A stretch of DNA of 64,000 nucleotides, from positions 595,896-659,895 of the forward strand of contig OY764332.1 in assembly GCA_963668425.1 (NCBI GenBank), read 5' to 3'. Positions 11,865-62,691 of this stretch are shown here, in pieces. The position numbers and the translations under genes are program-made. The notes beneath the pieces were generated by a model. The model saw only the letters and a program-made list of their open reading frames with translations. It made no database searches and was not told the origin of the DNA. The first letter of the stretch is position 1, and every line of letters starts with the position of its first letter. This DNA is from Minisyncoccota bacterium (lineage in GTDB: Bacteria > Patescibacteriota > Minisyncoccia > Phycocordibacterales > JABAAK01).

Positions 11865-11869
11865 ATAAT

Positions 11870-11978
11870 GAGTGCTCAGGAGAGGAATCTCACTTGACGG
11901 TGCCAGAACCATTGAAAAAATGTCTGCGGGGCGCAGTATACATTTTTTCAATGGTTCTCGGCGCTCCGCTATCGCTCC
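11870..11978. repeat. 109-bp 'X' repeat copy A (starts with tRNA-Leu 3'-end core GAGTGCTCAGGAGAGGA; contains 19-bp-stem hairpin)
   Basis: Near-identical copies at 14126-14234 and 14476-14584; internal inverted repeat AGAACCATTGAAAAAATGT…ACATTTTTTCAATGGTTCT around CTGCGGGGCGCAG. Confidence 0.8.
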
Positions 11979-12106
11979 ACAGACAACACCTCGCCCGTTC
12001 AAAAATAAGATGGGCGTGCATACGCACCACCGTTTTATTTTTTCACTCTCTGGCTCGGTATGTCTGTTTCGCTTCGTTTTCCCACCTTTGTGTATACTAT
12101 ACGTAC

Positions 12107-13740: not shown

Positions 13741-14125
13741 CACCTTTGTTTTTTGATAAGTTGGTATATTATTCTCAGGCGATATTATCCGCGAGGAATA
13801 CACCCACAAGAAACAGAAACTCCTTGCTGAAAAAGCGGACACCAGAGAAAACCTGCGGAAGGACTTGGACGGTGCTGTTGCGTGGTTTGAACCCGCACTT
13901 TCCATACTTAACCAAGCAACTGCAATACCAAACGCTCTGAAAGATGCCGAACCTGCCGTTTTGGCGGATTGTTTCAGAGAGGTCGGTTTTGAACCCCACG
14001 CTTCGCGCCGAAACGATTGTATTCCAGCCACAGTGTGGTTGGAAAGCCCTGTATGACGGGCTGCGAAACAGCCCGTCTAAAAAGCCACATACGAGCGATA
14101 GCGAGTGTGTATCATTTGTTTCCTT
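13741..14125. other. GC-richer structured non-coding stretch (candidate ncRNA, unidentified)
   Basis: No convincing ORF; local GC visibly higher than surroundings; several strong hairpins, e.g. GACGGGCTG-CGAAA-CAGCCCGTC at about 14056-14078. Confidence 0.25.
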
Positions 14126-14475
14126 GAGTGCTCAGGAGAGGAATCTCACTTGACGGTGCCAGAACCGTTGAAAAAATGTCTGCGGGGCGCAGTATACATT
14201 TTTCCAACGGTTCTCGGCGCTCCGCTATCGCTCCGCTGACTCCATCCGTCAAGTTTTTGCTTCGCAAAAACCAATCGGCTATCGCCGACAGTTCTTGTTG
14301 TTTGTAAAGAGTATACTTGTTGTGTTTTGTGGTGGTGCTTGGTGTTTGGTGCTCAGGAGAGGACTTGAACCTCCATGGGATTGCTCCCACACGCCCCTCA
14401 AGCGTGCGCGTCTGCCCGTGCCGACAATCTTTGATTGTCGCTGATTATTAGTCGCCACCTTGGTGGCGGAGTCAT
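14126..14475. repeat. 350-bp tandem unit 1 (X repeat + spacer + pseudo-tRNA-Leu 3' half + two hairpins)
   Basis: Unit repeated head-to-tail at 14476-14825 with only a few substitutions; contains copy of tRNA-Leu positions about 22-3' end (14349-14412). Confidence 0.85.
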
Positions 14476-14825
14476 GAGTGCTCAGGAGAGGAATCTCACT
14501 TGACGGTGCCAGAACCGTTGAAAAAATGTCTGCGGGGCGCAGTATACATTTTTCCAACGGTTCTCGGCGCTCCGCTATCGCTCCGCTGACTCCATCCGTC
14601 AAGTTTTTGCTTCGCAAAAACCAATCGGCTATCGCCGACAGTTCTTGTTGTTTGTAAAGAGTATGCTTGTTGTGTTTTGTGGTGGTACTTGGTGTTTGGT
14701 GCTCAGGAGAGGACTTGAACCTCCATGGGATTGCTCCCACACGCCCCTCAAGCGTGCGCGTCTACCCGTGCCGACAATCTCTGATTGTCGCTGATTATTA
14801 GTCGCCACCTTGGTGGCGGAGTCAT
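14476..14825. repeat. 350-bp tandem unit 2
   Basis: Same as unit 1; pseudo-tRNA fragment at about 14699-14762; followed immediately by intact tRNA-Leu. Confidence 0.85.
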
Positions 14826-14828
14826 GAG

Positions 14829-14912
14829 TGCTCAGGAGAGGACTTGAACCTCCATGGGATTGCTCCCACACGCCCCTCAAGCGTGCGCGTCTACCAGTTC
14901 CGCCACCTGAGC
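14829..14912 (-). tRNA. tRNA-Leu (anticodon GAG), type II with long variable arm
   Basis: Reverse complement folds: acceptor GCTCAGG/CCTGAGC, anticodon stem CACGC/GCGTG with loop TTGAGGG, variable arm about 15 nt, T-arm GGTTCAAGTCC; CCA not encoded. Confidence 0.8.
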
Positions 14913-19116: not shown

Positions 19117-20190
19117 ATGTTTATCCATACAGCACGTGAGGGATTTGATCCTGCAGCATGTTTTGATGTAGTGCCACTGTATCAGGGGCTGTTTTTTCGG
19201 CGCTGGCAGGAACGGTATGGGCGGAAGGTGGTTACCTTGGTGTCTGACGATAGTGATGATGCGGTGCACGTGTCTGTGCAGTGTTTTGAATATGTATTAC
19301 CTGTTGTTGGGTCGTTGTGGGTTGCTCCGCTTGGTCCGATTGGCTCATTTAGATCAGAGAGTGCTGAGAAAGCGTTTTATAACGAATTGCGATCACTATG
19401 TACTGAGATTTCACCGAAGACCGTTGCCTTGCGGGTGCAGAAGGAGCCAGAATTTTCCTCTATTCGGATGGTGTTGGCAGAGCGGTCGGGCGGTAGTTTT
19501 GTGCAACCGCCTGTAGAGGAGATAGTTTCACTTGAGGAGAGTGTGGAGGATATGGTAGGTGGTTTTTCTAAGAATGTACGCCGAGTGGTGCGTCGGTACG
19601 AACAAGGGAAGTGTGAGGGTGTTCGCTTTCATATTGAGAGATCTGATTTTAAGCAGTATTTTGCCGTAGTGTATGACTTGCTTGAGCAGTTGGCACGTAC
19701 TAAGAAATTTGGCTTGCATTCTCGGATGTACTATGAAGCGTTGTTTGAGGAGTTGCAAGCACATCCGGAGAATGGTTTGCTCGTGCTTGGGTATGTTGCA
19801 GATGAGGAAAGCCCTGTTTCGTTTATGTTGGTGCTGTATACCGGATCAGAGGCGTATCATCTCCATTCTGCGGCTTCTGTCGCTGGGTATGAGTCCGATA
19901 TGCCAATACTCACGCATTATGTTGCTTTCAAGGAAGCGAAGGAGCGAGGAATGAGCCGATTTAATCTTGGTGGCATTACTTCTACTTCGCAGAGCAGTGC
20001 TGGTGATTTGTCTGTATTTAAAAAGAAGTTTGGCGGAGAACAGATTGAGCATCCGTTGTCTATGGATATTGTTGTCTCTGGTTGGCGATACGCCCTGTTT
20101 CGTTTTTTGCGGTTGCGCCTAATGCTGGCACTACGACGGTTGGTGTTGCGGTTTTATAAGATGGTTGAGGTTGAGTTGCAGGCAGAGTAG
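19117..20190 (+). CDS. FemAB-family peptidoglycan bridge aminoacyltransferase-like protein
   Basis: 357 aa; N-terminal '…FFRRWQERYGRKVV…APLGP' and C-terminal 'HYVAFKEAKERGMSRFNLGGI' resemble Fem/Mur peptide transferase fold. Confidence 0.5.
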   Translation: MFIHTAREGFDPAACFDVVPLYQGLFFRRWQERYGRKVVTLVSDDSDDAVHVSVQCFEYVLPVVGSLWVAPLGPIGSFRSESAEKAFYNELRSLCTEISPKTVALRVQKEPEFSSIRMVLAERSGGSFVQPPVEEIVSLEESVEDMVGGFSKNVRRVVRRYEQGKCEGVRFHIERSDFKQYFAVVYDLLEQLARTKKFGLHSRMYYEALFEELQAHPENGLLVLGYVADEESPVSFMLVLYTGSEAYHLHSAASVAGYESDMPILTHYVAFKEAKERGMSRFNLGGITSTSQSSAGDLSVFKKKFGGEQIEHPLSMDIVVSGWRYALFRFLRLRLMLALRRLVLRFYKMVEVELQAE

Positions 20191-20229
20191 TGCTGAAGTA
20201 GGCAAAAATTACATGTATATACCAAAAAC

Positions 20230-20262
20230 ACACCCCGCTGTTTTTAAACAGCGGGGTGTGTT
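20230..20262. terminator. Bidirectional rho-independent terminator between convergent genes
   Basis: ACACCCCGCTG-tttttaaa-CAGCGGGGTGT flanked by T-runs on both strands; identical copy at 62538-62572. Confidence 0.7.
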
Positions 20263-20313
20263 TATTTCTTCGGCTCTATCTCAATGATGTAATAGAAACT
20301 ATCTTTCTACGAT

Positions 20314-21120
20314 TTACATTCCTCTGTGTAGTCCGATTGTTTCCCATGCATCTGTGTTTACTGATCCACAATTCTTTCGCTCTGCAATAAGGCAGGTAAG
20401 GTAACCAGGGCGTATCGCACCAACTCCTTGACTTGCTCTCTCATCTCTCTTTACCTCAGTATCAGCGGTGTCAACAACAGGAGTATCAACAGTAGGAGTA
20501 TCAACAACAGGGGTGTCAGTATCAGCGGTGTCAACAACAGGAGTAGTAGTATCAACAACAGGAGTGTAGGTGTTAGATTTGCTTTCTGACAACGCACGCA
20601 CCAGATAAGAAGGGGCACTCACAATGGTTGGTGTGTATCTAGCAAAACCACTGACACGGGTTACAACAATAATTATATACTTATCGGTGAAACTCTGTTT
20701 CCATTCTGCGGCGTGTTCAGTGAATGTAGGAAGTTCTGCTGTTCTCCAGTCATAATAATCACTATCCCAGGTTGCTGATAACACTTTCTCTTCACCCAAA
20801 GGGGTAAATATGTCAGAATCTCGAAGGATGGTAGAGTTCACTGCACGGTAAGCGGCTACATCTGCAGGATCAGCCATTTTTATTTGGTAGTGTACATAAG
20901 CAGATGTTGGCAGATCTGAATAACCAGAACAAGTGAGTCCTGGAAGTAAGGAGATAGCACCCAAGGATTCAGAATCAAGATATGTTGAGCCAAGTTCAAT
21001 ATCAAGATTACATTCTGTACTCTGCGCATGAACATTTGCTGTGTGCATAGTTGCTACTGCAGTAACTACGGTAATTGCAACCACTAATACGGTAGTAAGT
21101 ATTTGTTTTGTATATTTCAT
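20314..21120 (-). CDS. Secreted tandem-repeat protein, paralog of 61711-62484 (T/P/V/D-rich repeats; conserved Cys-pair C-terminus)
   Basis: 268 aa; signal peptide …ANVHA-Q; 18-bp DNA tandem repeats at about 20440-20580 encoding TPVVDT units; C-terminus 'GAIRPGYLTC…RKNCGSVNTD' shared with paralog. Confidence 0.5.
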   Translation of the reverse strand: MKYTKQILTTVLVVAITVVTAVATMHTANVHAQSTECNLDIELGSTYLDSESLGAISLLPGLTCSGYSDLPTSAYVHYQIKMADPADVAAYRAVNSTILRDSDIFTPLGEEKVLSATWDSDYYDWRTAELPTFTEHAAEWKQSFTDKYIIIVVTRVSGFARYTPTIVSAPSYLVRALSESKSNTYTPVVDTTTPVVDTADTDTPVVDTPTVDTPVVDTADTEVKRDERASQGVGAIRPGYLTCLIAERKNCGSVNTDAWETIGLHRGM

Positions 21121-21377
21121 AATATGTTAATTTTAAGTATGTAAGTAATTAATGAATAGGGGGTTATAGGGTAGATACCCTATTAAATCTATATTTATTA
21201 TTACATACTTTTACTATTATGTCAAGTATGTATGGTGATATATGCTGTAGTAGTAGGGTTTTTTGGACAGATGTCCAGGTATCTAGGTGCTATGCAAAGA
21301 CCTATTTACACGTTTTTACAGGAAAATAACCAGTAATTACGGCATATATGCCCACAACGGAATAAAGAAAGACGGAT

Positions 21378-21624: not shown

Positions 21625-22080
21625 ATGAGGTATTTATTATTATTAGTACTTTTTTTGATAGTTGTTGGTGTGCTTGTTGGTGTGGGTATGTATACGCCTG
21701 TGGGACAGGGAGTTGTTACTCGTATTTTTGATGGTGGGGCAGTTGAGGTGCTTCTTGATCCTTCGGAAGAAGCCGCTCGCGAAAAACAAGCAATCATTGA
21801 AAGTCGTGTTAATGAGATAGAGGATGTTAGTTTTGTACCTGACTCGTTTCTGTTTAGTGTTGATTTTATAGAAGATGAGGAAGACGGTTATTCTACTGTT
21901 GTAACGCGATTAGAGGATGGTCGGCAATATGAGATGTTCGTACATCCTTCCCACCTTCGGGATGTGAGTATTTCTTTGGAGGTTGGGGATATTATCCAAG
22001 TAGAGGTTGATTCTATAGTGGAAAGGGAACCTCCTACTCCTTCTATTCTTTATCCGATAACGATAACAGTAGAGGGGTAA
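21625..22080 (+). CDS. Hypothetical membrane-anchored protein containing a greA-derived segment
   Basis: 151 aa; N-terminal TM; 21772-21828 is about 94% identical at DNA level to greA 32648-32700 (…AAR.KQ.IIESRVNEIE…). Confidence 0.4.
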   Translation: MRYLLLLVLFLIVVGVLVGVGMYTPVGQGVVTRIFDGGAVEVLLDPSEEAAREKQAIIESRVNEIEDVSFVPDSFLFSVDFIEDEEDGYSTVVTRLEDGRQYEMFVHPSHLRDVSISLEVGDIIQVEVDSIVEREPPTPSILYPITITVEG

Positions 22081-32491: not shown

Positions 32492-32950
32492 ATGGTAAAT
32501 CAAAGTGAAAATTTTATAACTGCTGACGAGAAGAAGGAGATTGAGGCGGAATTACAGAAACTTATCACGGTAAAGCGTCCAGAGGTTATTGAGGACCTTC
32601 GTGTTGCGCGGGCATATGGTGATTTAAGTGAAAATGCCGAGTACGATGCCGCTCGCAAAAAACAAGGTATCATTGAAAGTCGTGTTAATGAGATAGAGTC
32701 CATTTTGAGAACAGCGGAGGTCGTTGAGGAAGATCACACTAAAGAGGTTGTTACTATTGGTAATTCAGTTGAGGTGAACGTGCAGGGTGAAGGAAAGAAG
32801 ATGTATACTATAGGTGCTGAAGGAAAGGGTACGGAGGTATCTTCGCATTCGCCTATAGCGGAAGCGTTGCTTGGCAAGCAGCAGGGGGATGTTGTTGTTG
32901 CTGTTTTACCAAAAGGCAAGGTGGAAATGACTATTCAAAAGATACGATAA
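32492..32950 (+). CDS. greA: Transcription elongation factor GreA
   Basis: 152 aa; coiled-coil N-domain, 'ARAYGDLSENAEYDAAR', FKBP-like C-domain. Confidence 0.85.
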   Translation: MVNQSENFITADEKKEIEAELQKLITVKRPEVIEDLRVARAYGDLSENAEYDAARKKQGIIESRVNEIESILRTAEVVEEDHTKEVVTIGNSVEVNVQGEGKKMYTIGAEGKGTEVSSHSPIAEALLGKQQGDVVVAVLPKGKVEMTIQKIR

Positions 32951-33766: not shown

Positions 33767-33941
33767 AGTGCTTTATATAGGAGTTGATGGTACTGTAGCT
33801 CTGGCTATAAATATGTCACAATGTCGCAAAAGGTATATTGTGCGACATGATGATTTCTCGTTTCCTAATACTCGTGCATCAGGTTGTAGGTAATAGAAAA
33901 ACACCCCGCTGTATACGGGGTGTTTGTGGTGTAGTGTAAGT

Positions 33942-34451
33942 TTAAGGTGTCGTTATGCTTCCATCGTCCCAGAATATTTCTCGCTGGATTCTGGACTCTT
34001 CTCCTCCGTTAAAATAAACGAATAGAACTGCTGCGTCACCAGCGTGCCCCTTTATAAGGACAATTCTTCCAAACTTCAGTGCCTCGGGATCATTAGGAAG
34101 TATCTCTGCTATCTGCTGAGCGCCATTTTGGCTAACGTCAAAAATATGGACAGTGCCTCTGCCCTCGTCGGCGTTTGGCATGCCGACAGCTAGTAGGTAG
34201 GCATTATTCCCCAGAGGATGGCTTGCTACTGCTCTCTCCTCGTCTTGGAATTGGGGGTGCTGAAGCAGTGTTTGAATTTGCTCAAGGACTTCAATCTCAA
34301 TCTTGGCCTCATCAGGTGCTATGACAATGTCTTGAGCTTCAGGTGCCATGACAATGTCTTGAGCTGGGCCAGAAACTCTTTCACACCCAGTAATAAACGC
34401 CATAAAAAATACAATACCTAACACAAAAAAATTTTTCATTTTCTCCTCCAA
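33942..34451 (-). CDS. Hypothetical lipoprotein
   Basis: Signal peptide with lipobox 'FITGC'; internal 24-bp tandem repeat (APEAQDIV×2). Confidence 0.35.
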   Translation of the reverse strand: MEEKMKNFFVLGIVFFMAFITGCERVSGPAQDIVMAPEAQDIVIAPDEAKIEIEVLEQIQTLLQHPQFQDEERAVASHPLGNNAYLLAVGMPNADEGRGTVHIFDVSQNGAQQIAEILPNDPEALKFGRIVLIKGHAGDAAVLFVYFNGGEESRIQREIFWDDGSITTP

Positions 34452-34677
34452 AAATTCTACTACAGTTTAAATTTTCTTTACCTAATAACGAACAATACTA
34501 ACATCATACAAGAAAAATATAATATGTCAAATACCCCCCCCCAAGAAAACCCTTATTCTACAAGATATTTTGACTATTCGTACCTATTTCTAAAGGACAC
34601 TCTTGCCGCAAAAATGATGAACTAATATGCATCAGGTTGTAGGTAATAGAAAAACACCCGGAGTAATTAGAAAGATT

Positions 34678-53927: not shown

Positions 53928-54002
53928 GGCCCTATCGTCTAGCGGCTAGGACACAGCCCTCTCACGGCTGAGACCGGGGTTCAATTCCCCGTAGGGTCAC
54001 CA
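53928..54002 (+). tRNA. tRNA-Glu (anticodon CUC), CCA encoded
   Basis: Acceptor GGCCCTA/TAGGGTC, anticodon stem CAGCC/GGCTG loop CTCTCAC, T-arm GGGGTTCAATTCCCC, 3' ACCA. Confidence 0.8.
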
Positions 54003-54115
54003 ATCAGCCAATATACCTCACTCTGTGTTTTTGTATTCGCCTCCGGTCTCAGCCGATCACGGCTGCCAGTAGTCAGGTTTTTGTCAGAGCCAAAAACACG
54101 GGGGTTTGATTCCAC

Positions 54116-54192
54116 GGTACAGCGTTAGAACTGAAGAAACATTTTGAAAATACCTCGTCCGTTCCACCCTCCTCTTAACTTAACCCCAACCC
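54116..54192. repeat. Left terminal inverted repeat of island
   Basis: Reverse complement aligns with 61201-61278 (…GGTTAAGTTAAGAGGAGGGTGGAACGGACGAGGTATTTTCAAAATGTTTCTTCAGTTCTAACGCTGTACC). Confidence 0.8.
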
Positions 54193-54296
54193 TTATGCTC
54201 GGTGCGACTGTTTCGTTTCGTTTTCCCATCTTCGTTCTTTTGCTCTGCTCTGTAAAAGTCCGAGGGAGGGAATGCTTATGTTAAATCACCTTTTCC

Positions 54297-55082
54297 TTAA
54301 ATTCTCTTCCGTGTTCCTCCTATTCTCCTCCTTGCAATATTTACATACTCACTGTCCCTCTCTATTCCCACCCATTGACATCCACATTGTTTAGCAACAC
54401 ACGCCGTCGTCCCGCTTCCCAAAAACGGATCTAAAACAATATCTTCCTTGTTTGCACTCGCAAGAATAATCCGCCGCAGCATTTCCTCAGGTTTTTGTGT
54501 TGGATGTAGCGCCTTTCCATCGTCGCCCCGTAACCGTTCATCCCCTTGCACAAGCGGCAATTCCCACACATCACGCATTTGCTTTACTTTTCCATTTTTC
54601 TGTCTTTCAGGGTTAATTTCTTTCACTTTTTCGTAATTAAAAGTCCACCCCTTCCCTTTGACTGCCCATATAATAAATTCTGTGGAATGTGTAAAAACTC
54701 GTCTCGTCATGTTCGGCATAGCATTTGTCTTATGCCAGGTAATTACATTGTTTATCTTGAATCCAATCTGTTTTATTGCAGTCATGACCTCGCTAATATT
54801 GTGATAACTGCAGGAGATATAAAATGAACCAGTGTCTTTTAATACTCGATTACAAGCACCGATCCATTGACGGGTAAATTGCACATATTCTGGTACGGTC
54901 ATTTTATCCCAGTGTGCGTCAACCATATACCAATCCCCGCCTGTTTTGTTTCCCTCCCACTTCAAACCATTGCCAGAAAGGTTGTACGGCGGATCCGCAA
55001 AAATTAAATCAATTGTTTGTTCATTAATTTTTTTATTCAAAATCTCTACACAATCACCATTGTAAATAATATTTGTTTTCAT
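54297..55082 (-). CDS. DNA methyltransferase, beta-class (DPPY then FxGxG), M2 of M-R-M operon
   Basis: 261 aa; 'IFADPPYNLSG' N-terminal, 'LDPFLGSGTTACVA' C-terminal; 4-nt overlap with upstream REase. Confidence 0.85.
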   Translation of the reverse strand: MKTNIIYNGDCVEILNKKINEQTIDLIFADPPYNLSGNGLKWEGNKTGGDWYMVDAHWDKMTVPEYVQFTRQWIGACNRVLKDTGSFYISCSYHNISEVMTAIKQIGFKINNVITWHKTNAMPNMTRRVFTHSTEFIIWAVKGKGWTFNYEKVKEINPERQKNGKVKQMRDVWELPLVQGDERLRGDDGKALHPTQKPEEMLRRIILASANKEDIVLDPFLGSGTTACVAKQCGCQWVGIERDSEYVNIARRRIGGTRKRI

Positions 55083-56908
55083 GTTGTTTTTTCAGAAGTG
55101 AGTTTCTTGCCCCACGAAGCGATAACAGTCGGGACAGATTCCAACCATTCATTTGAACTTTTCGACTTCTTTGATAGTGCGACAACTTCATCATAAAGAG
55201 ACATAATGTCCGCATGATGCAGAAAAGCATCTTTTACTTTTATTTCAAGAAGGATGTTTAGTACAGAAATAAATTGGGTAATTGAAAGCGGGATAATTTT
55301 TTGCTTTTTTCCTTCATACTCATATTTAACCGCATTCCAAAATGTATTTACAGTATCTCTATGTAATTGCGGAGCAATAAACAGGCAGTAAGATGGCTTA
55401 TCACTATACATGTTTTCAAAATTTCGTAAGTGTCGCATGATTGGCTGTCCCTCGTTGTACCATTGGTCCCGCCCGGTCAACATGGTAACTTCACATATTG
55501 CATTAAATGTTTCATAAAAACATTCGATGTCTGGCATATTGCCTGGCGCGGTGAAAGTCGGCTCATTATCATCACCAACCGGATAATTCGGCTGTATGTT
55601 TAGTGCATCGTTAAGCGCGGTCAGTCCAAGAGCAGACAATTTTTCAAGCAGTAATGGGCGGTCTTCTTGTTCAAAAATATTTTTCAACAATTCAACATAC
55701 GATGCAACATGTTCTGCGCTCTGCGACTCTCTTTGCACCATTTCATCTTGTAATGTTTTCCTATATGCACGCAATTCTGTAACATATTCTTTCAAAACAC
55801 TATCATCCATCTTTTTATAATCCTCAATTATACGCATTTGTTGCTGCAAATCCTTTTCATGTGTCTGTATATCAGAAATAAGATTGGTAATAATTTCTGT
55901 ATGTTTTGCCCTTGTTTCCCATGGTAGTTGAGGTTGAGATATGTCGGAAATATACTCAAGGTACACTTCCTTTGATTCAAATGATTGTGATTGTGCGGTA
56001 TCGCGCTCAAGCAATGATGTAATTTCAACCATTCTTCTCGGCTCAAGATCAACATAGAAACCGCCACCACGAATATACAAATATTTAGTCAGACGAAAAT
56101 ACCGTATCGCATTATCACCATAATCCTTTAGATTGTTCAAAAGAGATTGGACATCTTTATCGTTATCAGTTCCTAAAAATTCAGCAGCAAACTCTTTTCT
56201 GTATTTCTCAAAAAATTTATTCTGTTGCTGCCGTTCTTTTCCTTGAAGATCCGCCCGCAATGTGATAATCTCATTGGTATATTTTTGTACATCACTATAA
56301 TGTACCAAGGTTGGAACAAAAAGAGCAAACTCTTTTTTGCTAATTCCTTTTGCTTTATTCCCATTATACCCCTCCTTTTCATTTATCGCATTAATCAGAT
56401 GTAACATTCCGACAAATGGTTTAATATCATACTCTGCATCCGAAGAGTAGTCATCACTATCAGGATTTGGTATTTGCCATTTCAAAAAACTTCTCAAAAA
56501 CACTTCGCCTAAGTCAAAGTCATCTTGTAAAAACAGCTTCCCTAAATCGGTGACGCATACCTTGCCATCCCGAATGGCGACAAAGCCGAGTTTTCTCAAG
56601 GGATTAATTGACTGCCTGCCGCGCATTGCTGGATCTTCATATTGTTTTCCCAGAAAAATCTTTTCTGCCTCTTTAAATGGGACATCTTTTGAAAAATTAT
56701 CCAATAACTTTACTTGGTTTTTTGAAAGGGTGTTATAAAACTGTGTATTGCCGTAACCGTACAATCTGCTTTGAATTAATAAAATTTGAAACTTTTTTTG
56801 ATTTTCAAAATCCCAGTCCATTCCTTCAAGCTGACTTAACACACCTAGGAAACCCCGTAATCTTTCCGGGCTCCGTAGTGTTGTAGTGATTGACCATGGC
56901 TTTTTCAT
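55079..56908 (-). CDS. Putative type IIS-like restriction endonuclease (uncharacterised about 610-aa protein between two methyltransferases)
   Basis: Start set to ATG 1 nt after upstream methyltransferase stop; tightly coupled on both sides with methyltransferases of different classes, the usual arrangement for asymmetric-site type IIS systems; no family recognisable by eye. Confidence 0.4.
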   Translation of the reverse strand: MKKPWSITTTLRSPERLRGFLGVLSQLEGMDWDFENQKKFQILLIQSRLYGYGNTQFYNTLSKNQVKLLDNFSKDVPFKEAEKIFLGKQYEDPAMRGRQSINPLRKLGFVAIRDGKVCVTDLGKLFLQDDFDLGEVFLRSFLKWQIPNPDSDDYSSDAEYDIKPFVGMLHLINAINEKEGYNGNKAKGISKKEFALFVPTLVHYSDVQKYTNEIITLRADLQGKERQQQNKFFEKYRKEFAAEFLGTDNDKDVQSLLNNLKDYGDNAIRYFRLTKYLYIRGGGFYVDLEPRRMVEITSLLERDTAQSQSFESKEVYLEYISDISQPQLPWETRAKHTEIITNLISDIQTHEKDLQQQMRIIEDYKKMDDSVLKEYVTELRAYRKTLQDEMVQRESQSAEHVASYVELLKNIFEQEDRPLLLEKLSALGLTALNDALNIQPNYPVGDDNEPTFTAPGNMPDIECFYETFNAICEVTMLTGRDQWYNEGQPIMRHLRNFENMYSDKPSYCLFIAPQLHRDTVNTFWNAVKYEYEGKKQKIIPLSITQFISVLNILLEIKVKDAFLHHADIMSLYDEVVALSKKSKSSNEWLESVPTVIASWGKKLTSEKTT

Positions 56909-56909
56909 G

Positions 56910-58127
56910 CTATTTCTTGACTTCGCAATAAAAAATTCTTTCCGCATTATTTTCTCCATCGCTTTTCCCAGTTGTAAATGCCTTGTACCTTTTCTCAAAA
57001 ATCTCAACTGCTCCACGCTTTTTTAAAACTTGTACGATATCCTCATCGTTCATTCGTGCATTTGATCGACCATCTTTTAAATCACCGGTATTGTTATACG
57101 AAAGTAGAATATACTTACAGTTCGCATGCTCAATCAAATCAGCAAAGGCAGATGTTGCATCCTTGAGACAGTATTTACTTTTTATGTGCGAACGATCCAT
57201 TTTTTTAGCAACGCCAAACACATCAGGCTTTTCCCATGTGACCAAATTTTCCAAAAGGTGATATGCATCGGAATACTGCCGAGAGTTATATGGCGGATCA
57301 ATATAAAGTACATCACAAGAGATCTTTCTTATAAGGTCATTTGCATCTTCTCTATATACCTCATTACCTGCATTCTTTCTGTATGACACCTCTGGATTCA
57401 AAAGTTGCACAGGATTTAACATGTCCATCTTCCTCCTAAACGCATCATAGTGACCGACAGTATTTGCCGCACGATCAACTGAGTATAGAAGTGAGCATAG
57501 TAAGATATTTTTTTCATCATCATTTTTCACAACATTCTCTATTTCTTCCCGAATGGCACCAATCTTTTGAGCATTCCTTTTTGAGAAATAGGTTCCACCA
57601 AAATGTTTTGAAAAATAATTTTCTGTTTCATCTGATAATCTATTAAGGTATTTTATTTTTTCTGAAACATTTTCATACATTCCACCATCATCAATATCCA
57701 AAAATGTTCGTAAACACACATAGTTAGCGGAAAGAAAATCATTGGAGATAATTTTTATTTCTCTGGTGTTAAAACTCTCTCCGACAACGCCAGTGCCAGC
57801 AAATATGTCGCAGAAAGAATTCACTTCTTTGCACTTACTGAAGACAATGCTTTTAATAAAATCAATTAGTCTGTACTTATTGCCTAAATACCTCCTGCTT
57901 TGTATCTGAAAATATCCGTCATTTGGCTTTTTTTGTTCAAAATACTTTTTTGTTTTTAGTGATTTAATAAGAGATGCAGTATCAATCCCAGGAACATCAA
58001 AAAGTGCTTGCTGTTCCCTATCTTTGGTGTGCCAAAAACCTTCATCACAGTATCCATCTGTGCATATAAAATTATCCTCATGATTTATACACCGCTCAAC
58101 AATTCTATCTTTTTCATTATTCTTCAT
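56910..58127 (-). CDS. DNA N6-adenine methyltransferase, alpha-class (FxGxG then DPPY), with Cys-rich N-terminal extension, M1 of M-R-M operon
   Basis: 405 aa; 'CDIFAGTGVVGESF' followed by 'VLYIDPPYNSRQY'; N-terminal 'CINHEDNFICTDGYCDEGFWH'. Confidence 0.8.
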   Translation of the reverse strand: MKNNEKDRIVERCINHEDNFICTDGYCDEGFWHTKDREQQALFDVPGIDTASLIKSLKTKKYFEQKKPNDGYFQIQSRRYLGNKYRLIDFIKSIVFSKCKEVNSFCDIFAGTGVVGESFNTREIKIISNDFLSANYVCLRTFLDIDDGGMYENVSEKIKYLNRLSDETENYFSKHFGGTYFSKRNAQKIGAIREEIENVVKNDDEKNILLCSLLYSVDRAANTVGHYDAFRRKMDMLNPVQLLNPEVSYRKNAGNEVYREDANDLIRKISCDVLYIDPPYNSRQYSDAYHLLENLVTWEKPDVFGVAKKMDRSHIKSKYCLKDATSAFADLIEHANCKYILLSYNNTGDLKDGRSNARMNDEDIVQVLKKRGAVEIFEKRYKAFTTGKSDGENNAERIFYCEVKK

Positions 58128-58166
58128 ATGTATTTAGTATATCTCACAAATGGGAAATCCTTATTT

Positions 58167-59330
58167 TCAAAGTAATTCCCTCTGTCTTCTTACCTTATTC
58201 CATTTCTCAACATCTTCAAATTCATCGTTTTCAGCATAATCATATATTATGCCTACGCTATGCCTTGCCCTTGTAATTGCAATATAAAATTTACAACGGG
58301 TAGTATCCTTTAATTGATTTTCGTGATCTTTAATCCATTTTTTAATATCGTCCGTTGGATAAATAAGAACTTTGTCAAATGTCAAACCTTTTGATTTTCC
58401 ATAATTTATTGCTGGATATTCTGACAATTTTAGTTTCAAGATTTGCGGCGAGTGTGTATTGATGTAATCACACTCATCATCACTTCTGACCAAAAAAACG
58501 CCTTCGTGATCTGTTACATGTTTTCTGCATTTTGCACAGATACAAGGGGTAGAAGATTCATATTGAGGAGGAGGAAAAAGTTTGGATGAAAAATCACAGA
58601 TAGATTGATTATTCCTGTGTGTTCTGTTCAATGTTTCTTGATCTATTACACAACCAAAAGCACAACACTCTGTTTCAATAAATTCTTTAATTTTTCCATT
58701 TTTATATTTTATATTTTTTCTCGCATGACTTGTTAAGTAGGCGACTTGTCTTGGATCACCAACCAATAAAATCCTTGATTGTGTGCCAAGGAGTATTTTT
58801 ATTACCTCTAAATCCCATCCGGCAAGATCCTGCACTTCATCAATAAAAATATGCTGATATATTCTTGAGATTCTATCAATTACTTTTCCGCCTGTTTTGT
58901 CGTTACATTTAAGAATAAACTTTGAAATCTTATCTGAGTATATTTTCCAACCCTCTGTAAAATAGTATTGAGGAAAATCATTCTCTCCCCAATATATCGG
59001 TTTTTCTTTTTTCTTTCTGTTTCTATTTTTACAAGCAGATATTTCTGATGACAAATAAAACCCTATTCTTTTTCCAAATAAACCGTCATTCATTGACCCC
59101 TGATACGGTCTCACACCATGTTGCAAGAGAAAAGAAAACCACGTTTGAACCGTTATGTTTGGCGGTATGTTTCCATTCTTTTCTGTAATTTTTCTTCTAA
59201 TCTCTTGTTCGTTTTCTTCTGTATAAGTAGTAATCAAAATATTCTCTTTCTTAACTTTCAATGCTTCTGTGATAAGATGTGTTGTCTTGCCCGATCCTGC
59301 AACCGCAATTATTAATTTATTTTGATTCAT
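58167..59330 (-). CDS. gajB: GajB-like UvrD/SF1 helicase (short, 387 aa)
   Basis: Walker A 'AVAGSGKTTHL', Walker B 'IFIDEVQDLAGWD', 'VGDPRQ', motif VI 'IAITRARHS'; 14-nt overlap with upstream gajA-like gene. Confidence 0.6.
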   Translation of the reverse strand: MNQNKLIIAVAGSGKTTHLITEALKVKKENILITTYTEENEQEIRRKITEKNGNIPPNITVQTWFSFLLQHGVRPYQGSMNDGLFGKRIGFYLSSEISACKNRNRKKKEKPIYWGENDFPQYYFTEGWKIYSDKISKFILKCNDKTGGKVIDRISRIYQHIFIDEVQDLAGWDLEVIKILLGTQSRILLVGDPRQVAYLTSHARKNIKYKNGKIKEFIETECCAFGCVIDQETLNRTHRNNQSICDFSSKLFPPPQYESSTPCICAKCRKHVTDHEGVFLVRSDDECDYINTHSPQILKLKLSEYPAINYGKSKGLTFDKVLIYPTDDIKKWIKDHENQLKDTTRCKFYIAITRARHSVGIIYDYAENDEFEDVEKWNKVRRQRELL

Positions 59331-60960
59331 GTTCCCATTTAATTGCCTCTAAAATATATTCAGGAAAATTTATGTCTTGATCTGATTCAAATAATTCCAA
59401 CGCACATTTGGTTTTGTTATTTTTCATATGTTCTTCAAGATCTTTGTTGTTCTGATTATCAAGCTTAAAAATACCTGCTAATACATCCAATTGCTTATGA
59501 TTGGCATTTATAATCTGAGGCTCCAATGTCGGCAACTTGTCATTCTTGCTTGCACAGATTTTTATATTTTTTGATTTTTCATAATCTTTGTACTTCTTTT
59601 TAACCTTATTCTCATAATCACCGTCGTTATCGGTCACAACCACCACTGTTTTATTAATCTTATCTGCAATTTCAAGAAATCTTAAAAAAGATGTTCCCAC
59701 AGAAATAACATCAACCTGATCATCAATTGGTGATTTATTTTTTTCCTTCATGTACGCCTTTTGTACTGTTAATTCATCAGACGGACCCTCCACTAAAATA
59801 GCTTTCCTGCAAAGAATCATTCTCAATGTGTCATATCCGGGAAGTTTTTCAAAAAACTTTTGAGTTTCAGGAGTCAAATCATTCATTCTCACTTGATTTA
59901 TGCTATCATCGGGTTCTTTGTTGAGAATAATTAGATTCGCTAAATTAAATTTATTCGCTACAAAATTGCTATGTGTTGAGACTATAGCCTGTTTCTTATT
60001 AGTGTCATCTGTCTTATTATCCTTCAGATGTTTAATTAATTTATTTAGATTTGCGTGTGATAAGTGGTTCTCTGGCTCTTCAAGTAATAATATATTCGCC
60101 TCTTTCGCTTTTTTGTGATTAAGTGCTAATTGAGTTTTGACTAAGGATTGCTCACCTTTCCCAATAAAATCAAAAGGTATGTTGTTCAGATAGGTTTTTA
60201 AGCTTGTTTCCCATGCAGTTTTTGTTGAAACATCGGCTGATAAGGTGATTTTCTTGTTAGATATATTATTCTGACTTAACTTTTCATTTATTTTGTTGAC
60301 GATGTCTTCTTCGGCAAATGAATCTTTAAGCTTTCTATGTGCTTGAGCTATTTTTACTTTTTCACCATCTTCAAGAAGGTCACGAATTATGTGAGATATA
60401 TAAACATCAGATCCATTTTGATAACGACCACTTGTTGAATCTATAAAGGAAGATTTAAATGGTATACTTCGTGGGGTTATGCTCTCCCTTGCAAATGATT
60501 GCCACTCACAGTCATAGTACTCAATCGGCAAAGATTTTAAATCACCATCATCTAAGAGTGCGTCGTGTTCCGATTTGTATCGTTCTTGAAATAAAATCTC
60601 AAATCGTATACCACACCCCTTCTGTCTGGTGGTATTATTATCTCCCTCAAAATTTGCTTTTATCACATCATTATCAATTTCAAAAAACAATTCAATTCTG
60701 ACATGCGGAGGATCCACATTTTCATTTTGATCGGAAATGTATTTTTCCATAACTTCCTTGTTGAAGAGTGCCTCACTATGTCCTGTTCGTATATGTCTAC
60801 CGTGAAACCAGCCAGAAAGTGCAAGATGAACCGCCTCTAAAATTGTAGATTTTCCAGATTCATTATCCCCAACTAATATATTTAAACCCTCATTAAGTTC
60901 CAAAATAAACTCACCTTTGAAACATTTAAAATTTTCAATTACTATCTTTTTCAATCTCAT
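59317..60960 (-). CDS. gajA: GajA-like OLD-family ABC ATPase with C-terminal Toprim nuclease domain
   Basis: 547 aa; Walker A 'GDNESGKSTILEA', Walker B/D-loop 'ILLLEEPENHLS', Toprim 'ILVEGPSDE' and 'VVVVTDNDGDYE'. Confidence 0.7.
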   Translation of the reverse strand: MRLKKIVIENFKCFKGEFILELNEGLNILVGDNESGKSTILEAVHLALSGWFHGRHIRTGHSEALFNKEVMEKYISDQNENVDPPHVRIELFFEIDNDVIKANFEGDNNTTRQKGCGIRFEILFQERYKSEHDALLDDGDLKSLPIEYYDCEWQSFARESITPRSIPFKSSFIDSTSGRYQNGSDVYISHIIRDLLEDGEKVKIAQAHRKLKDSFAEEDIVNKINEKLSQNNISNKKITLSADVSTKTAWETSLKTYLNNIPFDFIGKGEQSLVKTQLALNHKKAKEANILLLEEPENHLSHANLNKLIKHLKDNKTDDTNKKQAIVSTHSNFVANKFNLANLIILNKEPDDSINQVRMNDLTPETQKFFEKLPGYDTLRMILCRKAILVEGPSDELTVQKAYMKEKNKSPIDDQVDVISVGTSFLRFLEIADKINKTVVVVTDNDGDYENKVKKKYKDYEKSKNIKICASKNDKLPTLEPQIINANHKQLDVLAGIFKLDNQNNKDLEEHMKNNKTKCALELFESDQDINFPEYILEAIKWEHESK

Positions 60961-60967
60961 ACCTATT

Positions 60968-61147
60968 ACTTTAATAATGCCAAATGCCTACCTTTCTCAA
61001 TAGCCAGCCAGTTAACGGATAAGCAATAAAAACTGCTATAAGCGCTGGTTTTACTGGTTCATTGAAAATATTCCAAAGCAAGGCAAAAATAACAATGGTG
61101 ATTACTTTATTTACCACGCTTCCTAATGTTGAGTGAAAGTTTTTCAT
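60968..61147 (-). CDS. Unannotated 59-aa two-TM small membrane protein heading the Gabija-like operon
   Basis: Translation by hand of the minus strand: MKNFHSTLGSVVNKVITIVIFALLWNIFNEPVKPALIAVFIAYPLTGWLLRKVGIWHY; stop 8 nt before gajA-like start; below the ORF-track size cut-off. Confidence 0.3.
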
Positions 61148-61200
61148 AAAAACATTTTACCATTATTTGGTTAAGGTGTTTACGGTGCGGTCCGAGCGTA

Positions 61201-61278
61201 GGGGTTGGGTTTAAGTTAAGAGGAAGGTGGAACGGATGAGGTGTTTTCAAAATGTTTCTTCGGCTCTAACGCTGTACC
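61201..61278. repeat. Right terminal inverted repeat of island
   Basis: See TIR-L; abuts DR2 at 61280. Confidence 0.8.
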
Positions 61279-61380
61279 ATAAGGTCACCAATCAGCCAGC
61301 AGATACCGTATTTCATGCCTCTGTATTTATCTCTGATTTTAGAAATTTAGGCATTTCTCTGGTGGTACACTATAAACATC

Positions 61381-61454: not shown

Positions 61455-61710
61455 CCTAAAAACAGCATATTTGCTGGTGTTTGTGAGGTATCTATTTTGG
61501 CATATGTATCCTTGAGATGACTTGTCTATTGCCAAAATATCCTTATTTATAGGGCTTTTCTAAAGATATTGCCATAGGTAGCATATTATAATATATAGTT
61601 GACATTTTGACAAAAATATGTAATAATAAGTGTAGATTATACAAGGAATTACCTTGTAAACTACTCTTTTAATTACTTACTATATTACATTAATAAAAAT
61701 AACTAATATT

Positions 61711-62484
61711 ATGAATTACACAAAAAAAATAATTACTAGCGTGTTAATAGTTGTAATTGCTGTATTACTAGCAGTAGCAACCATTCACACATCAAGTGCT
61801 TACGCACAGGATGGAGAATGTACTTTCTATGTCTCTTCTATAGAGCGTGACGGTTCAAAAATTTCTCTACATCCTTCAACTTGTACTGCTGCGGATGAGC
61901 AACTTTTGCCAAATTCTGTTTCTCTGCGTTACAAAATCAATTTGTACGCTGCTGTTGATACAGTAAACTATGACTCACTAGAAATAATGGGTTCAGAAGA
62001 GAGAGTAGTACAAATGGAAAAAGTAGTAACAGATTCCGATCTTGGAATTTATCATTATGAAGCAACAACCCCTACGATTGATAACAGTTACTGGGCAACA
62101 AGTTTTGTTGAGGGAAGCGTATATGTTCTTGCTACTACTCTTGTTAATAACGTTCAAGGGTCTACAGCAATGCTTTTGGATTGTGATACGAGCGAATGTG
62201 AGCTTTATGTAAAGTATGTTGAGTCCTATACTCACACCTCTACTGGCACCACTGTTGTTGACACCCCTACTGTTGTTGTTGATACTCCTGTTGTTGATAC
62301 TCCTGTTGTTGATACTCCTGTCGCTGACACCGCTGATACTGAGGTCAAGAGAAACAAGAGAGCAAGTCAAGGATCTGGTGCGATACGCCCTGGTTACCTT
62401 ACCTGCCGTGTTGCAGGCCGAAAGAACTGTGGATCAGTAAATACAGATGTATGGCAAACAATCGGACTATACATAGGAATGTAA
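61711..62484 (+). CDS. Secreted tandem-repeat protein, paralog of 20314-21120
   Basis: 257 aa; signal peptide …SSAYA-Q; 15-bp tandem repeats at about 62250-62330 (TPVVD units); shared C-terminal 'GAIRPGYLTC…RKNCGSVNTD'. Confidence 0.5.
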   Translation: MNYTKKIITSVLIVVIAVLLAVATIHTSSAYAQDGECTFYVSSIERDGSKISLHPSTCTAADEQLLPNSVSLRYKINLYAAVDTVNYDSLEIMGSEERVVQMEKVVTDSDLGIYHYEATTPTIDNSYWATSFVEGSVYVLATTLVNNVQGSTAMLLDCDTSECELYVKYVESYTHTSTGTTVVDTPTVVVDTPVVDTPVVDTPVADTADTEVKRNKRASQGSGAIRPGYLTCRVAGRKNCGSVNTDVWQTIGLYIGM

Positions 62485-62537
62485 ATCGTAGAAAGATAGT
62501 TTCTATTACATCATTGAGATAGAGCCGAAGAAATAAA

Positions 62538-62574
62538 CACACCCCGCTGTTTTTAAACAGCGGGGTGTGTTTTG
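62538..62574. terminator. Bidirectional terminator, identical to the one at 20230-20262
   Basis: ACACCCCGCTG-ttttaaa-CAGCGGGGTGTG + TTTTG. Confidence 0.7.
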
Positions 62575-62691
62575 TATGAAAGTAAGGTACATCTCTATGC
62601 TTATCTAATTTCCAAAATAATGTCATAGTTCACTCAAATCACCCCTATATACATTTTATTACGAGAAATGTTTGTTCAATTTTGTGCTGTG

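Follow-up and report, generated by a model that had tools for sequence, protein, structure and literature searches.

We analyzed a 64,000-nt stretch (referred to as the window; all coordinates are window positions) within a 696,550-bp contig of a Minisyncoccota bacterium, which carries two related genes, gene A (20314-21120, minus strand) and gene B (61711-62484, plus strand). Both are probably full-length, independently promoted paralogs of an undescribed family of secreted proteins, for which we coin the name PGYxTC family, and the near-identity of their 3' ends is probably the footprint of non-allelic homologous recombination (short-tract gene conversion). As a whole, we give this best explanation a probability of about two in three. 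The gene pair shows a mosaic similarity profile, an incongruence between its 5' and 3' modules, a hypervariable center and polymorphism at the strain level.

Mosaic structure of genes A and B

The open reading frames (ORFs) of both genes lie where an earlier, sequence-only reading of this DNA had placed them, and their products are paralogs (BLASTP E=4e-40, 40% identity), as that reading had proposed. The N-terminus of each protein is basic and leads into some 20 hydrophobic residues; this region can be read directly from the sequence as a Sec/signal peptidase I signal peptide ending in VHA/Q (A) or AYA/Q (B, the slash marking the cleavage site). Then follow about 150 residues that form a domain with paired cysteines (the cysteine count is even in A and B), TPVVD-type repeats and a common C-terminus, EVKR..RASQG.GAIRPGYLTC..A.RKNCGSVNTD.W.TIGL..GM. 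The signal peptides, the T/P/V/D repeats and the shared C-terminus with its Cys pair had all been reported for both proteins and hold up. The repeat period had been given as 18 bp in one gene and 15 bp in the other, and this does not: both genes have a 15-nt period with super-units of 30 and 21 nt, and the arrays are short (about 5-7 copies).

Features of gene A (strand in parentheses):
20314..21120 (-), coding sequence (protein P0001, 268 aa), stop codon at 20314-20316
21025-21120 (-), signal peptide (residues 1-32)
about 20572-21024 (-), central variable domain
about 20458-20571 (-), TPVVD-type repeats
20317-20457 (-), conserved C-terminal module (E222-M268)
20225..20529 (-), whole shared 3' module (repeats, C-terminal module, 3' untranslated region (3'UTR), terminator)
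20225..20323 (-), near-identical block (last 3 codons, stop, 3'UTR, terminator), 97/99 to gene B
20226..20263 (no strand), palindromic terminator, perfect with 18-bp arms, between a FemAB-like gene and gene A
21197..21225 (-), promoter: TTGACA, 17-nt spacer, (TGT)AATAAT; 11/12 consensus positions plus TG extension
21166..21183 (-), 5'UTR hairpin TAGGGTA/TACCCTA just 3' of the -10 element, seen in the fold
21121-21196, 5'UTR leader

Features of gene B:
61711..62484 (+), coding sequence (protein P0002, 257 aa), stop codon at 62482-62484
61711-61806 (+), signal peptide, with the central variable domain next
about 62239-62340 (+), repeats
62341-62481 (+), conserved C-terminal module
62269..62573 (+), whole shared 3' module
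62475..62573 (+), near-identical block, with the hairpin at 62535-62572
61599..61627 (+), promoter: TTGACA, 17-nt spacer, (TGT)AATAAT
61640..61658 (+), 5'UTR hairpin TACAAGG/CCTTGTA, seen in the fold
61628-61710, 5'UTR leader

At the DNA level, the alignment of A and B is a mosaic of a similar 5' part, an unalignable center and a similar 3' part. Identity is 77-81% across the promoter, 5'UTR and signal peptide. Some 450 nt in the center are essentially unalignable, and the encoded centers give only an 18-bit BLASTP match. The 3' modules (20225-20529 and 62269-62573) form an ungapped 305-nt inverted repeat with 90% identity. Of its 29 differences, the first 206 nt (87% identity) hold 27 and the last 99 nt hold two (Fisher p=0.0014, for a boundary picked post hoc), and the longest exact run between the genes is 78 nt (20246-20323 in A; permutation P=0.0035). 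The stop-codon region and terminator had been described as 100% identical; near-identity stands, while exact identity does not, as two central loop bases differ (97/99). Likewise, the similarity of about 85% ascribed to the upstream coding sequence applies to the last 206 or so coding nt (87%) and not to the unalignable center or the more diverged 5' part.

The near-identical block ends in the palindromic hairpin. In gene orientation its loop mismatch reads AA in A (20244-20245) and TT in B (62553-62554), while both hairpins read identically on the plus strand; with respect to the genes, the loop is thus flipped. The stem being perfect and the 5' arms identical, the identity of the 3' arms follows automatically, and the independent evidence of identity between A and B is the 78-nt run that reaches to the loop. 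The window contains exactly two occurrences of the 34-nt hairpin core, compared to 0 expected by chance. The terminator stem counts 17 bp with 9 GC, and the folded 3' regions of 106-108 nt reach -37 to -40 kcal/mol (z about -7.7). A terminator scan scores the hairpin on the strand opposite each gene, with the tail ATTTCTTC, and a T-run (T5 in A, T4 in B) comes after the stem on the gene strand. Genes A and B each run against the locally prevailing gene direction. Their convergent partners are the FemAB-like gene (19117-20190, plus strand) for A, and tRNA-Asp and a prepilin peptidase gene for B. With its GC-rich stem-loop, T-runs on both strands and convergent genes, the hairpin has the sequence characteristics of an intrinsic (Rho-independent) terminator that is plausibly bidirectional, in line with the sequence-only reading.

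The PGYxTC family and its genomic context

When 1.84 billion cluster representatives were searched exhaustively with HMMER, about 11 relevant proteins were found, and a twelfth match was confined to the repeat region. All family members originate from ENA or Logan metagenome assemblies and from the contig holding the window. They share the invariant motif PGYxTC-x2-A-x-R-x2-CG-x2-N, in which two cysteines are spaced as Cys-x7-Cys; in most cases a K/R/S-rich linker stands before it. The family alignment also shows a conserved signal peptide (M-N-Y-T-x-K..) and a weak central signature, [DY]W..SF. In most members the motif is followed by an acidic T/E/P-rich tail. Only A and B have a low-complexity TPVVD repeat before the motif and a stop directly after IGLxxGM, an arrangement that, judged from the alignment, is derived and shared by the two.

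No relative was found in 185,579 GTDB species representatives (two scans with family patterns) or in JGI metagenome contigs (one family-pattern scan). Neither A nor B has a match in Pfam or PHROGs; NCBIfam gave nothing significant for 11 members (one LPXTG-family match in one member, E=0.11), and neither the full nor the motif profile matched a PDB sequence. A word-indexed protein search returned only A, B and P0003 with the A+B profile, only five known members with a repeat-trimmed family profile, and nothing with a 43-column motif profile, which is a limit of the word index, as the same hidden Markov model (HMM) scores true members at 72-83 bits. On six-frame translations of the window, the motif HMM detects A and B only, and thus no third copy or donor pseudogene there. 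The database records of the 696,550-bp contig hold just two motif proteins. The repeat array varies between strains, a polymorphism that the sequence-only reading had asked to check, reading TTVVDTPTVVVDTPVVDTPVVDTPVADTADTE in gene B of the window and TTVVVDTPTVVVDTPTVVVDTADTDTPVVDTADTE in its sister-strain counterpart (P0013 on L008).

The C-termini (..TIGLHRGM in A, ..TIGLYIGM in B) contain neither an LPXTG motif nor a hydrophobic segment, so the proteins are not of the sortase-anchored type. Type IV pilins were considered because a prepilin peptidase is a conserved neighbor, but the N-termini (M[NK]YTK.., a hydrophobic stretch and AxA/Q) lack a G/FTLIE-type motif, and neither protein matches Pfam N_methyl. 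For one family member a beta-sandwich fold of immunoglobulin-like (Ig-like) type is predicted, and the central hypervariable domain is predicted to be an Ig-like beta-sandwich.

Four related genomes allowed a comparison of the locus: L001, L004 (a 647,271-bp contig whose name suggests that it is circular), L005/L006, and L008, which belongs to a sister strain represented by the contigs of ENA sample ERZ21861969. The known genome sizes of this lineage are 0.65-0.70 Mb. All four carry a syntenic family member between FKBP/UvrB (or tRNA-Val) and the genes for prepilin peptidase and SerRS, and the gene order around gene B is the same, with tRNA-Val upstream and prepilin peptidase downstream. By this synteny, gene B is at the ancestral position. 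In L006 (286-1089), and also in L005, an in-frame stop interrupts the syntenic gene 48 codons in, shortly beyond the signal peptide; either the gene is a pseudogene or the stop is an error of assembly or sequencing found in two runs.

The central domains of the syntenic genes have no significant BLASTP match to one another, and one is 380 aa long, the others about 150 aa. The family genes examined keep the same 3' layout, in which some 55-60 nt of 3'UTR include a small hairpin and a long GC-rich hairpin comes next, usually starting with AAACACACC. Housekeeping genes of the relatives are mostly 80-83% identical to the window in nucleotides and 86-88% in amino acids, with a lower value for the FKBP gene. 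Because the ends are alike and the centers unrecognizable while housekeeping proteins keep 86-88% identity, we read the locus as a hypervariable cassette set in a conserved frame for expression and export.

The 5' end of this frame is conserved as well. Genes A and B each have their own start codon (ATG), signal peptide and promoter, the latter matching 11/12 consensus positions in B as in A, and the same promoter module is found in the orthologs of L001, L004 and L006. Beyond AATAAT, the genes at the B-type locus and gene A share the consensus A(A/G)T(A/G)TAGATT. Individual folds place a 5'UTR hairpin at the same site in A, B, L001, L004, L006 and L002 with differing stem sequences, and its distance from the -10 element is constant in all family genes of the B-type locus and in gene A; a formal consensus fold across the six genes is weak, its alignment being out of register. 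The leaders (in addition to those listed above, L001 4770-4849, L004 7931-8000 and L006 224-286) are AT-rich without a Shine-Dalgarno sequence in the B-type-locus genes and gene A, whereas adjacent genes have GGAGG.

The 647-kb relative encodes a second family paralog, P0010, at another locus and with an unrelated promoter and signal peptide. The central domain of A matches P0010 with 34 bits (E=2e-6, 33% over 64 aa), compared to 18 bits for B. Gene A thus looks chimeric, with ends of the B type and a different center, since this center is closest to a protein whose own promoter and signal peptide are unrelated. The slot of the window that corresponds to the P0010 locus is occupied by a lipoprotein-like gene with direct-repeat flanks:
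33942-34451 (-), lipoprotein-like gene, lipobox ITGC, between a LOG-family gene and a class II aminoacyl-tRNA synthetase gene
33875-33906 and 34628-34659, perfect 32-nt direct repeats around this gene

Across the family, conservation is limited to the signal peptide and the Cys-loop module, and most members have a basic site ahead of the motif (EVKR, EAKR, SSKR, ASKR or NAKR). Both features would also suit a pro-protein that is cleaved after export in its basic linker (KR or K/R-rich, 8-20 residues before the motif) and frees a disulfide-looped C-terminal peptide, a signal or a toxin, with the variable domain as a dispensable carrier. Such processing sits less well with the long acidic tail past the motif in most members; moreover, there is no protease partner, immunity gene or transporter among the conserved neighbors of the family genes examined, and profile searches found no homology to any known peptide family. 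We consider it a live alternative to a role at the cell surface, albeit an unlikely one.

Origin of the shared 3' ends

The proposal of gene conversion or recombination at the 3' end is supported by the incongruence between the 5' and 3' modules relative to the L001 ortholog. Over the upstream 115 nt, the identity between A and B (77%) does not exceed that of either gene to L001 (80% each), and the signal peptides of A and B are 81% identical against 75-79% to L001. The motif region reaches 91% between A and B against 73-79% to L001, and the downstream part (3'UTR and terminator) 92% against 70-74% (2x2 Fisher p=0.0018 for the contrast between 5' and 3' modules). Within the last 47 codons, A and B differ by 10 amino-acid replacements and about five synonymous changes over about 33 synonymous sites (an estimate from the codon table), a synonymous rate well above the 2/99 of the final 3'UTR block. 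Given these changes, the coding part of the module would be older than the last 100 nt or so, or under diversifying selection outside the invariant motif, and two nested conversion events are as likely as one.

Under the gene conversion reading, the inverted copies, 41.7 kb apart, would have exchanged a short tract that homogenized the 3' module of about 300 nt, the last 100 nt or so most recently, with the distal limit of the tract at or just past the palindromic terminator. A family gene would be built from a sigma-70-type promoter, the 5'UTR hairpin, the AT-rich leader, the Sec signal peptide and the variable domain, followed by the T/P/V/D low-complexity linker, the invariant Cys-x7-Cys module, the 3'UTR and the strong palindromic terminator. 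The conserved modules could serve as homology anchors for conversion, and the same anchors may permit the swapping of central cassettes, as the affinity of the center of A to P0010 suggests.

The sister strain is collinear with window positions 21825-54116 and 99.2-99.6% identical there. The gene-B region is only 95.9% identical between the strains, compared to 99.2% in its surroundings, and the first 183 codons of gene B differ by six non-synonymous and two synonymous codon changes. In the 3' stretch there is no substitution between the two B genes apart from the loop. Here, the B gene of the sister strain carries AA (L008 10852-10853) and is identical to gene A of the window across 105/105 nt, including 10 nt past the stem. 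This independent assembly, with the same 3' end on gene B, supports a conversion between A and B. Because the sister strain carries AA, gene B of the window must have flipped its loop recently; it is also short of two single bases just past the stem. In a quasi-palindrome or hairpin template-switch mutation, the center of a hairpin can turn into its reverse complement. The change from AA to TT, which separates A from B and likewise gene B of two 99.2%-identical strains, resembles such an event, and from the pattern of loop flip and base losses we attribute both to a template switch at the hairpin or to recombination within the palindrome; two independent adjacent substitutions would be a further way to obtain the flip.

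Another short patch was found near gene A. Positions 21769-21822, within the ORF at 21625-22080 and 650 nt from gene A, are 93% identical over 54 nt to positions 32645-32698 in greA, 11 kb away. The patch encodes AAREKQAIIESRVNEIE, while the sister strain has an unrelated sequence there (DAEMEDVVS). The pattern suggests an ectopic short-patch gene conversion whose recipient was an unrelated gene, and we count it in favor of the conversion reading of A and B.

Several points weigh against this reading. The counts are small, the boundary between 206 and 99 nt was chosen after the fact, and much depends on a few synonymous changes. The 5' module may itself be constrained, so that its equal identity within the pair and across species could reflect saturation rather than age. 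The similarity between the center of A and P0010 is modest, and AlphaFold models have low confidence for A (pLDDT, the predicted local distance difference test, 53) and for the Cys-loop module in both models. Finally, copy A was not recovered from the sister strain, whose contig ends about 660 nt short of it, and an exact-protein look-up of P0001 and of its FemAB-like neighbor returned no sister-strain copy.

The near-identity could also have arisen without recombination, if the 3'UTR and terminator were a functional RNA element under purifying selection (an mRNA-stabilizing or regulatory two-hairpin 3' end, or a bidirectional terminator) while the coding part diverged by relaxed or positive selection. 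The 3' layout common to the family genes examined, the unchanged 3' stretch of gene B between the strains, loop aside, and the mostly non-synonymous changes in the last 47 codons would all be expected under such constraint. However, the downstream module is only 70-74% identical between species, below most housekeeping coding sequence (80-83%), which argues that its primary sequence is not strongly constrained; constraint alone thus fails to explain the identity of the 3' ends, as this sequence is not conserved between species. The neighboring coding motif, too, is closer within the pair than across species, its 47 codons hold about five synonymous differences compared to two differences in 99 UTR bases, and a scan of the 3'UTR against Rfam at a permissive E-value gave no family above threshold, only sub-threshold terminator-like matches. 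We therefore regard selection without recombination as rather improbable.

We rate just as low the possibility that gene A is a fairly recent whole-gene duplicate of gene B whose center and 5' part raced apart while the 3' part has not yet diverged, with no conversion involved. The derived traits found in A and B and in no other member (TPVVD before the motif, stop after IGLxxGM) fit a recent common origin, and gene B outpaces its surroundings between the strains. A recent duplication is at odds with the non-coding promoter and 5'UTR, which are as diverged between A and B (77%) as between orthologs of different species (78-80%), and with the center of A, which is closer to P0010 of another genome than to B. 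Furthermore, a relative also holds two paralogs at separate loci, which points to an old duplication. An assembly artefact, in which a collapsed or chimeric assembly copied the 3' end onto one locus, is highly improbable: the region around A is indeed arranged differently in the sister strain, but the block of about 100 nt is shorter than any modern read length and has unique flanks on both sides at both loci, the copies differ at the loop and directly past the stem, and a separate assembly from another sample reproduces the 3' end of B.

Surroundings, related systems and possible function

A recombination-driven inversion polymorphism between A and B was rejected, as the sister strain is collinear across the 33-kb interval. 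Next to gene A, the MS-channel gene segment 18039-18910 corresponds to L010 9886-10757 with 99.7% identity in wholly different surroundings, with ribosomal L10/L12 upstream and a zeta-toxin-like gene downstream in the sister strain. Because of this different context, the region around gene A is taken to be rearranged between strains of one species. Directly past the terminator of gene B, the sister strain has about 830 nt extra (L008 10880-11706, compared to window 62579-62680), containing a gene for a 182-aa membrane-anchored coiled-coil protein that is absent from the window; the terminator is the edge of this indel.

A defense island lies upstream of gene B:
54117-61281, island of 7.2 kb with genes for an N4/N6 methylase, an AlwI-family endonuclease, a D12 methylase, GajB and GajA (Gabija) and a 58-aa membrane ORF

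It thus comprises an AlwI-type restriction-modification system with two methylases and a Gabija system (PADLOC E=6e-198 for GajA and 2.5e-133 for GajB). Its ends are 87-nt inverted repeats with 91% identity (54116-54202 and 61192-61278), and no integrase is encoded inside. The otherwise 99.2%-identical sister strain lacks the island and has, at the empty site, extra tandem copies of the sequence at window 53973-54116 (the tRNA-Glu 3' end and 114 nt). The adjacency of island and gene B noted in the sequence-only reading is real, yet it looks incidental because gene B is ancestral and the island arrived beside it. A functional link between the two was rejected, the island being a strain-specific insertion next to an ancestral gene.

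Elsewhere in the window, the majority gene orientation turns from plus to minus near 34 kb (about 33.8-34.6 kb), where the GC skew falls, and this site may be the replication terminus. Positions 14125-14912 contain a 350-nt tandem duplication (99% identical) that includes a partial extra tRNA-Leu(GAG) beside two complete tRNA-Leu(GAG) genes, and a 117-nt segment at 11868-11984 is related to it. The 728-aa ORF at 137-2323 contains, at 1499-2163, direct repeats of 262 nt that are 93% identical and have a spacing of 357 nt.

Among known systems, tufA and tufB of Salmonella are inverted paralogs that undergo concerted evolution by RecA-dependent gene conversion without inverting the intervening segment. 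A and B resemble them as inverted copies on one chromosome with short-tract exchange, part-length identity and an uninverted interval in the sister strain. The tuf genes are homogenized over the whole coding sequence under purifying selection, whereas in A and B only the ends stay similar and the center is hypervariable.

Mycoplasma variable lipoproteins (Vlp, Vsp, Vsa) form paralog families with a conserved 5'UTR and signal peptide, a divergent exported part and a tandem-repeat number that varies between strains; they have a lipobox cysteine and phase-vary via promoter homopolymer tracts or site-specific invertases. The small genome, paralogs with a shared 5' module and the strain-variable repeat region are found here as well. 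However, the signal peptides of A (..NVHA/QST) and B (..SAYA/QDG) are of the AxA/Q type and have no L-x-x-C lipobox, neither a promoter homopolymer nor an invertase-type promoter inversion was seen, the interval between the copies is collinear in the sister strain, and the conserved part of A and B also takes in the 3' Cys-loop module. The phase variation suggested earlier is not supported for the same reasons: the promoter spacers, TAATAGTAAAAGTATGT and TTTTGACAAAAATATGT, contain no long homopolymer or simple-sequence tract, and the sister strain shows no inversion between the copies.

Cassette-type antigenic variation by gene conversion is described for Anaplasma Msp2/P44 (PMC3338850). With this system, and with Neisseria pilE/pilS and Borrelia vlsE, genes A and B share conserved ends, an unalignable center and a converted 3' module. 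Unlike those systems, which have one expression site and many promoterless donor pseudogenes and switch within infection, A and B are only two copies, and each comes with a start codon, a signal peptide and a strong promoter of its own. Donor cassettes were not found, and the sequences are not homologous to those systems. Judged from these defining features (no donor pseudogenes, no lipobox, no switch element), an assignment of A and B to the Msp2/P44 or Vlp class fails. A protein with PTD repeats from a Gracilibacterium of the candidate phyla radiation (CPR) is predicted to be extracellular, has an N-terminal anchor or signal and is hypervariable in an otherwise clonal population, and its authors read it as an attachment factor (PMC6851277). 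A and B are similar to it in the ultra-small genome, the predicted extracellular location, the Pro/Thr/Asp-rich tandem repeat and the local hypervariation (PMC6851277). In the Gracilibacterium protein, variation is confined to the nucleotides of a long array of 9-nt repeats with the peptide preserved (PMC6851277), while A and B have a short array of about 5-7 copies of a 15-nt unit, their variable part is a folded domain and two paralogs share recombined ends; the proteins have no homology.

We infer that the proteins are exported and disulfide-bonded. A host, phage or competitor may put their variable domain under diversifying pressure, and the Cys-loop module may bind a partner that stays constant, for example a receptor, a processing enzyme or the cell wall. 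The signal peptide, the predicted Ig-like fold and the hypervariability are consistent with a surface, antigenic or host-attachment role. Tentatively, the locus could be an undescribed surface-diversification locus, in which constant modules bracket an Ig-like cassette that is replaced between species and shuffled between paralogs, and which might serve host attachment or phage or host evasion in an episymbiont clade with ultra-small genomes (0.65-0.70 Mb); this is possible, although we hold it less likely than not to be the case.

Gene conversion between paralogous genes of surface proteins is well known; new here are the protein family and the lineage, which is absent from current reference genome sets, and the main value of the finding lies in these two rather than in the mechanism. 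If the conversion reading holds, genes A and B would be a compact, well-delimited case of a minimal-genome bacterium diversifying an exported protein, in which a fast-replaced domain lies between recombination anchors formed by the fixed promoter, signal-peptide and 3' modules. The invariant Cys-loop motif may provide a marker and an experimental handle (antibody, tagging, deletion) for the cell-surface and host-interaction biology of these bacteria.

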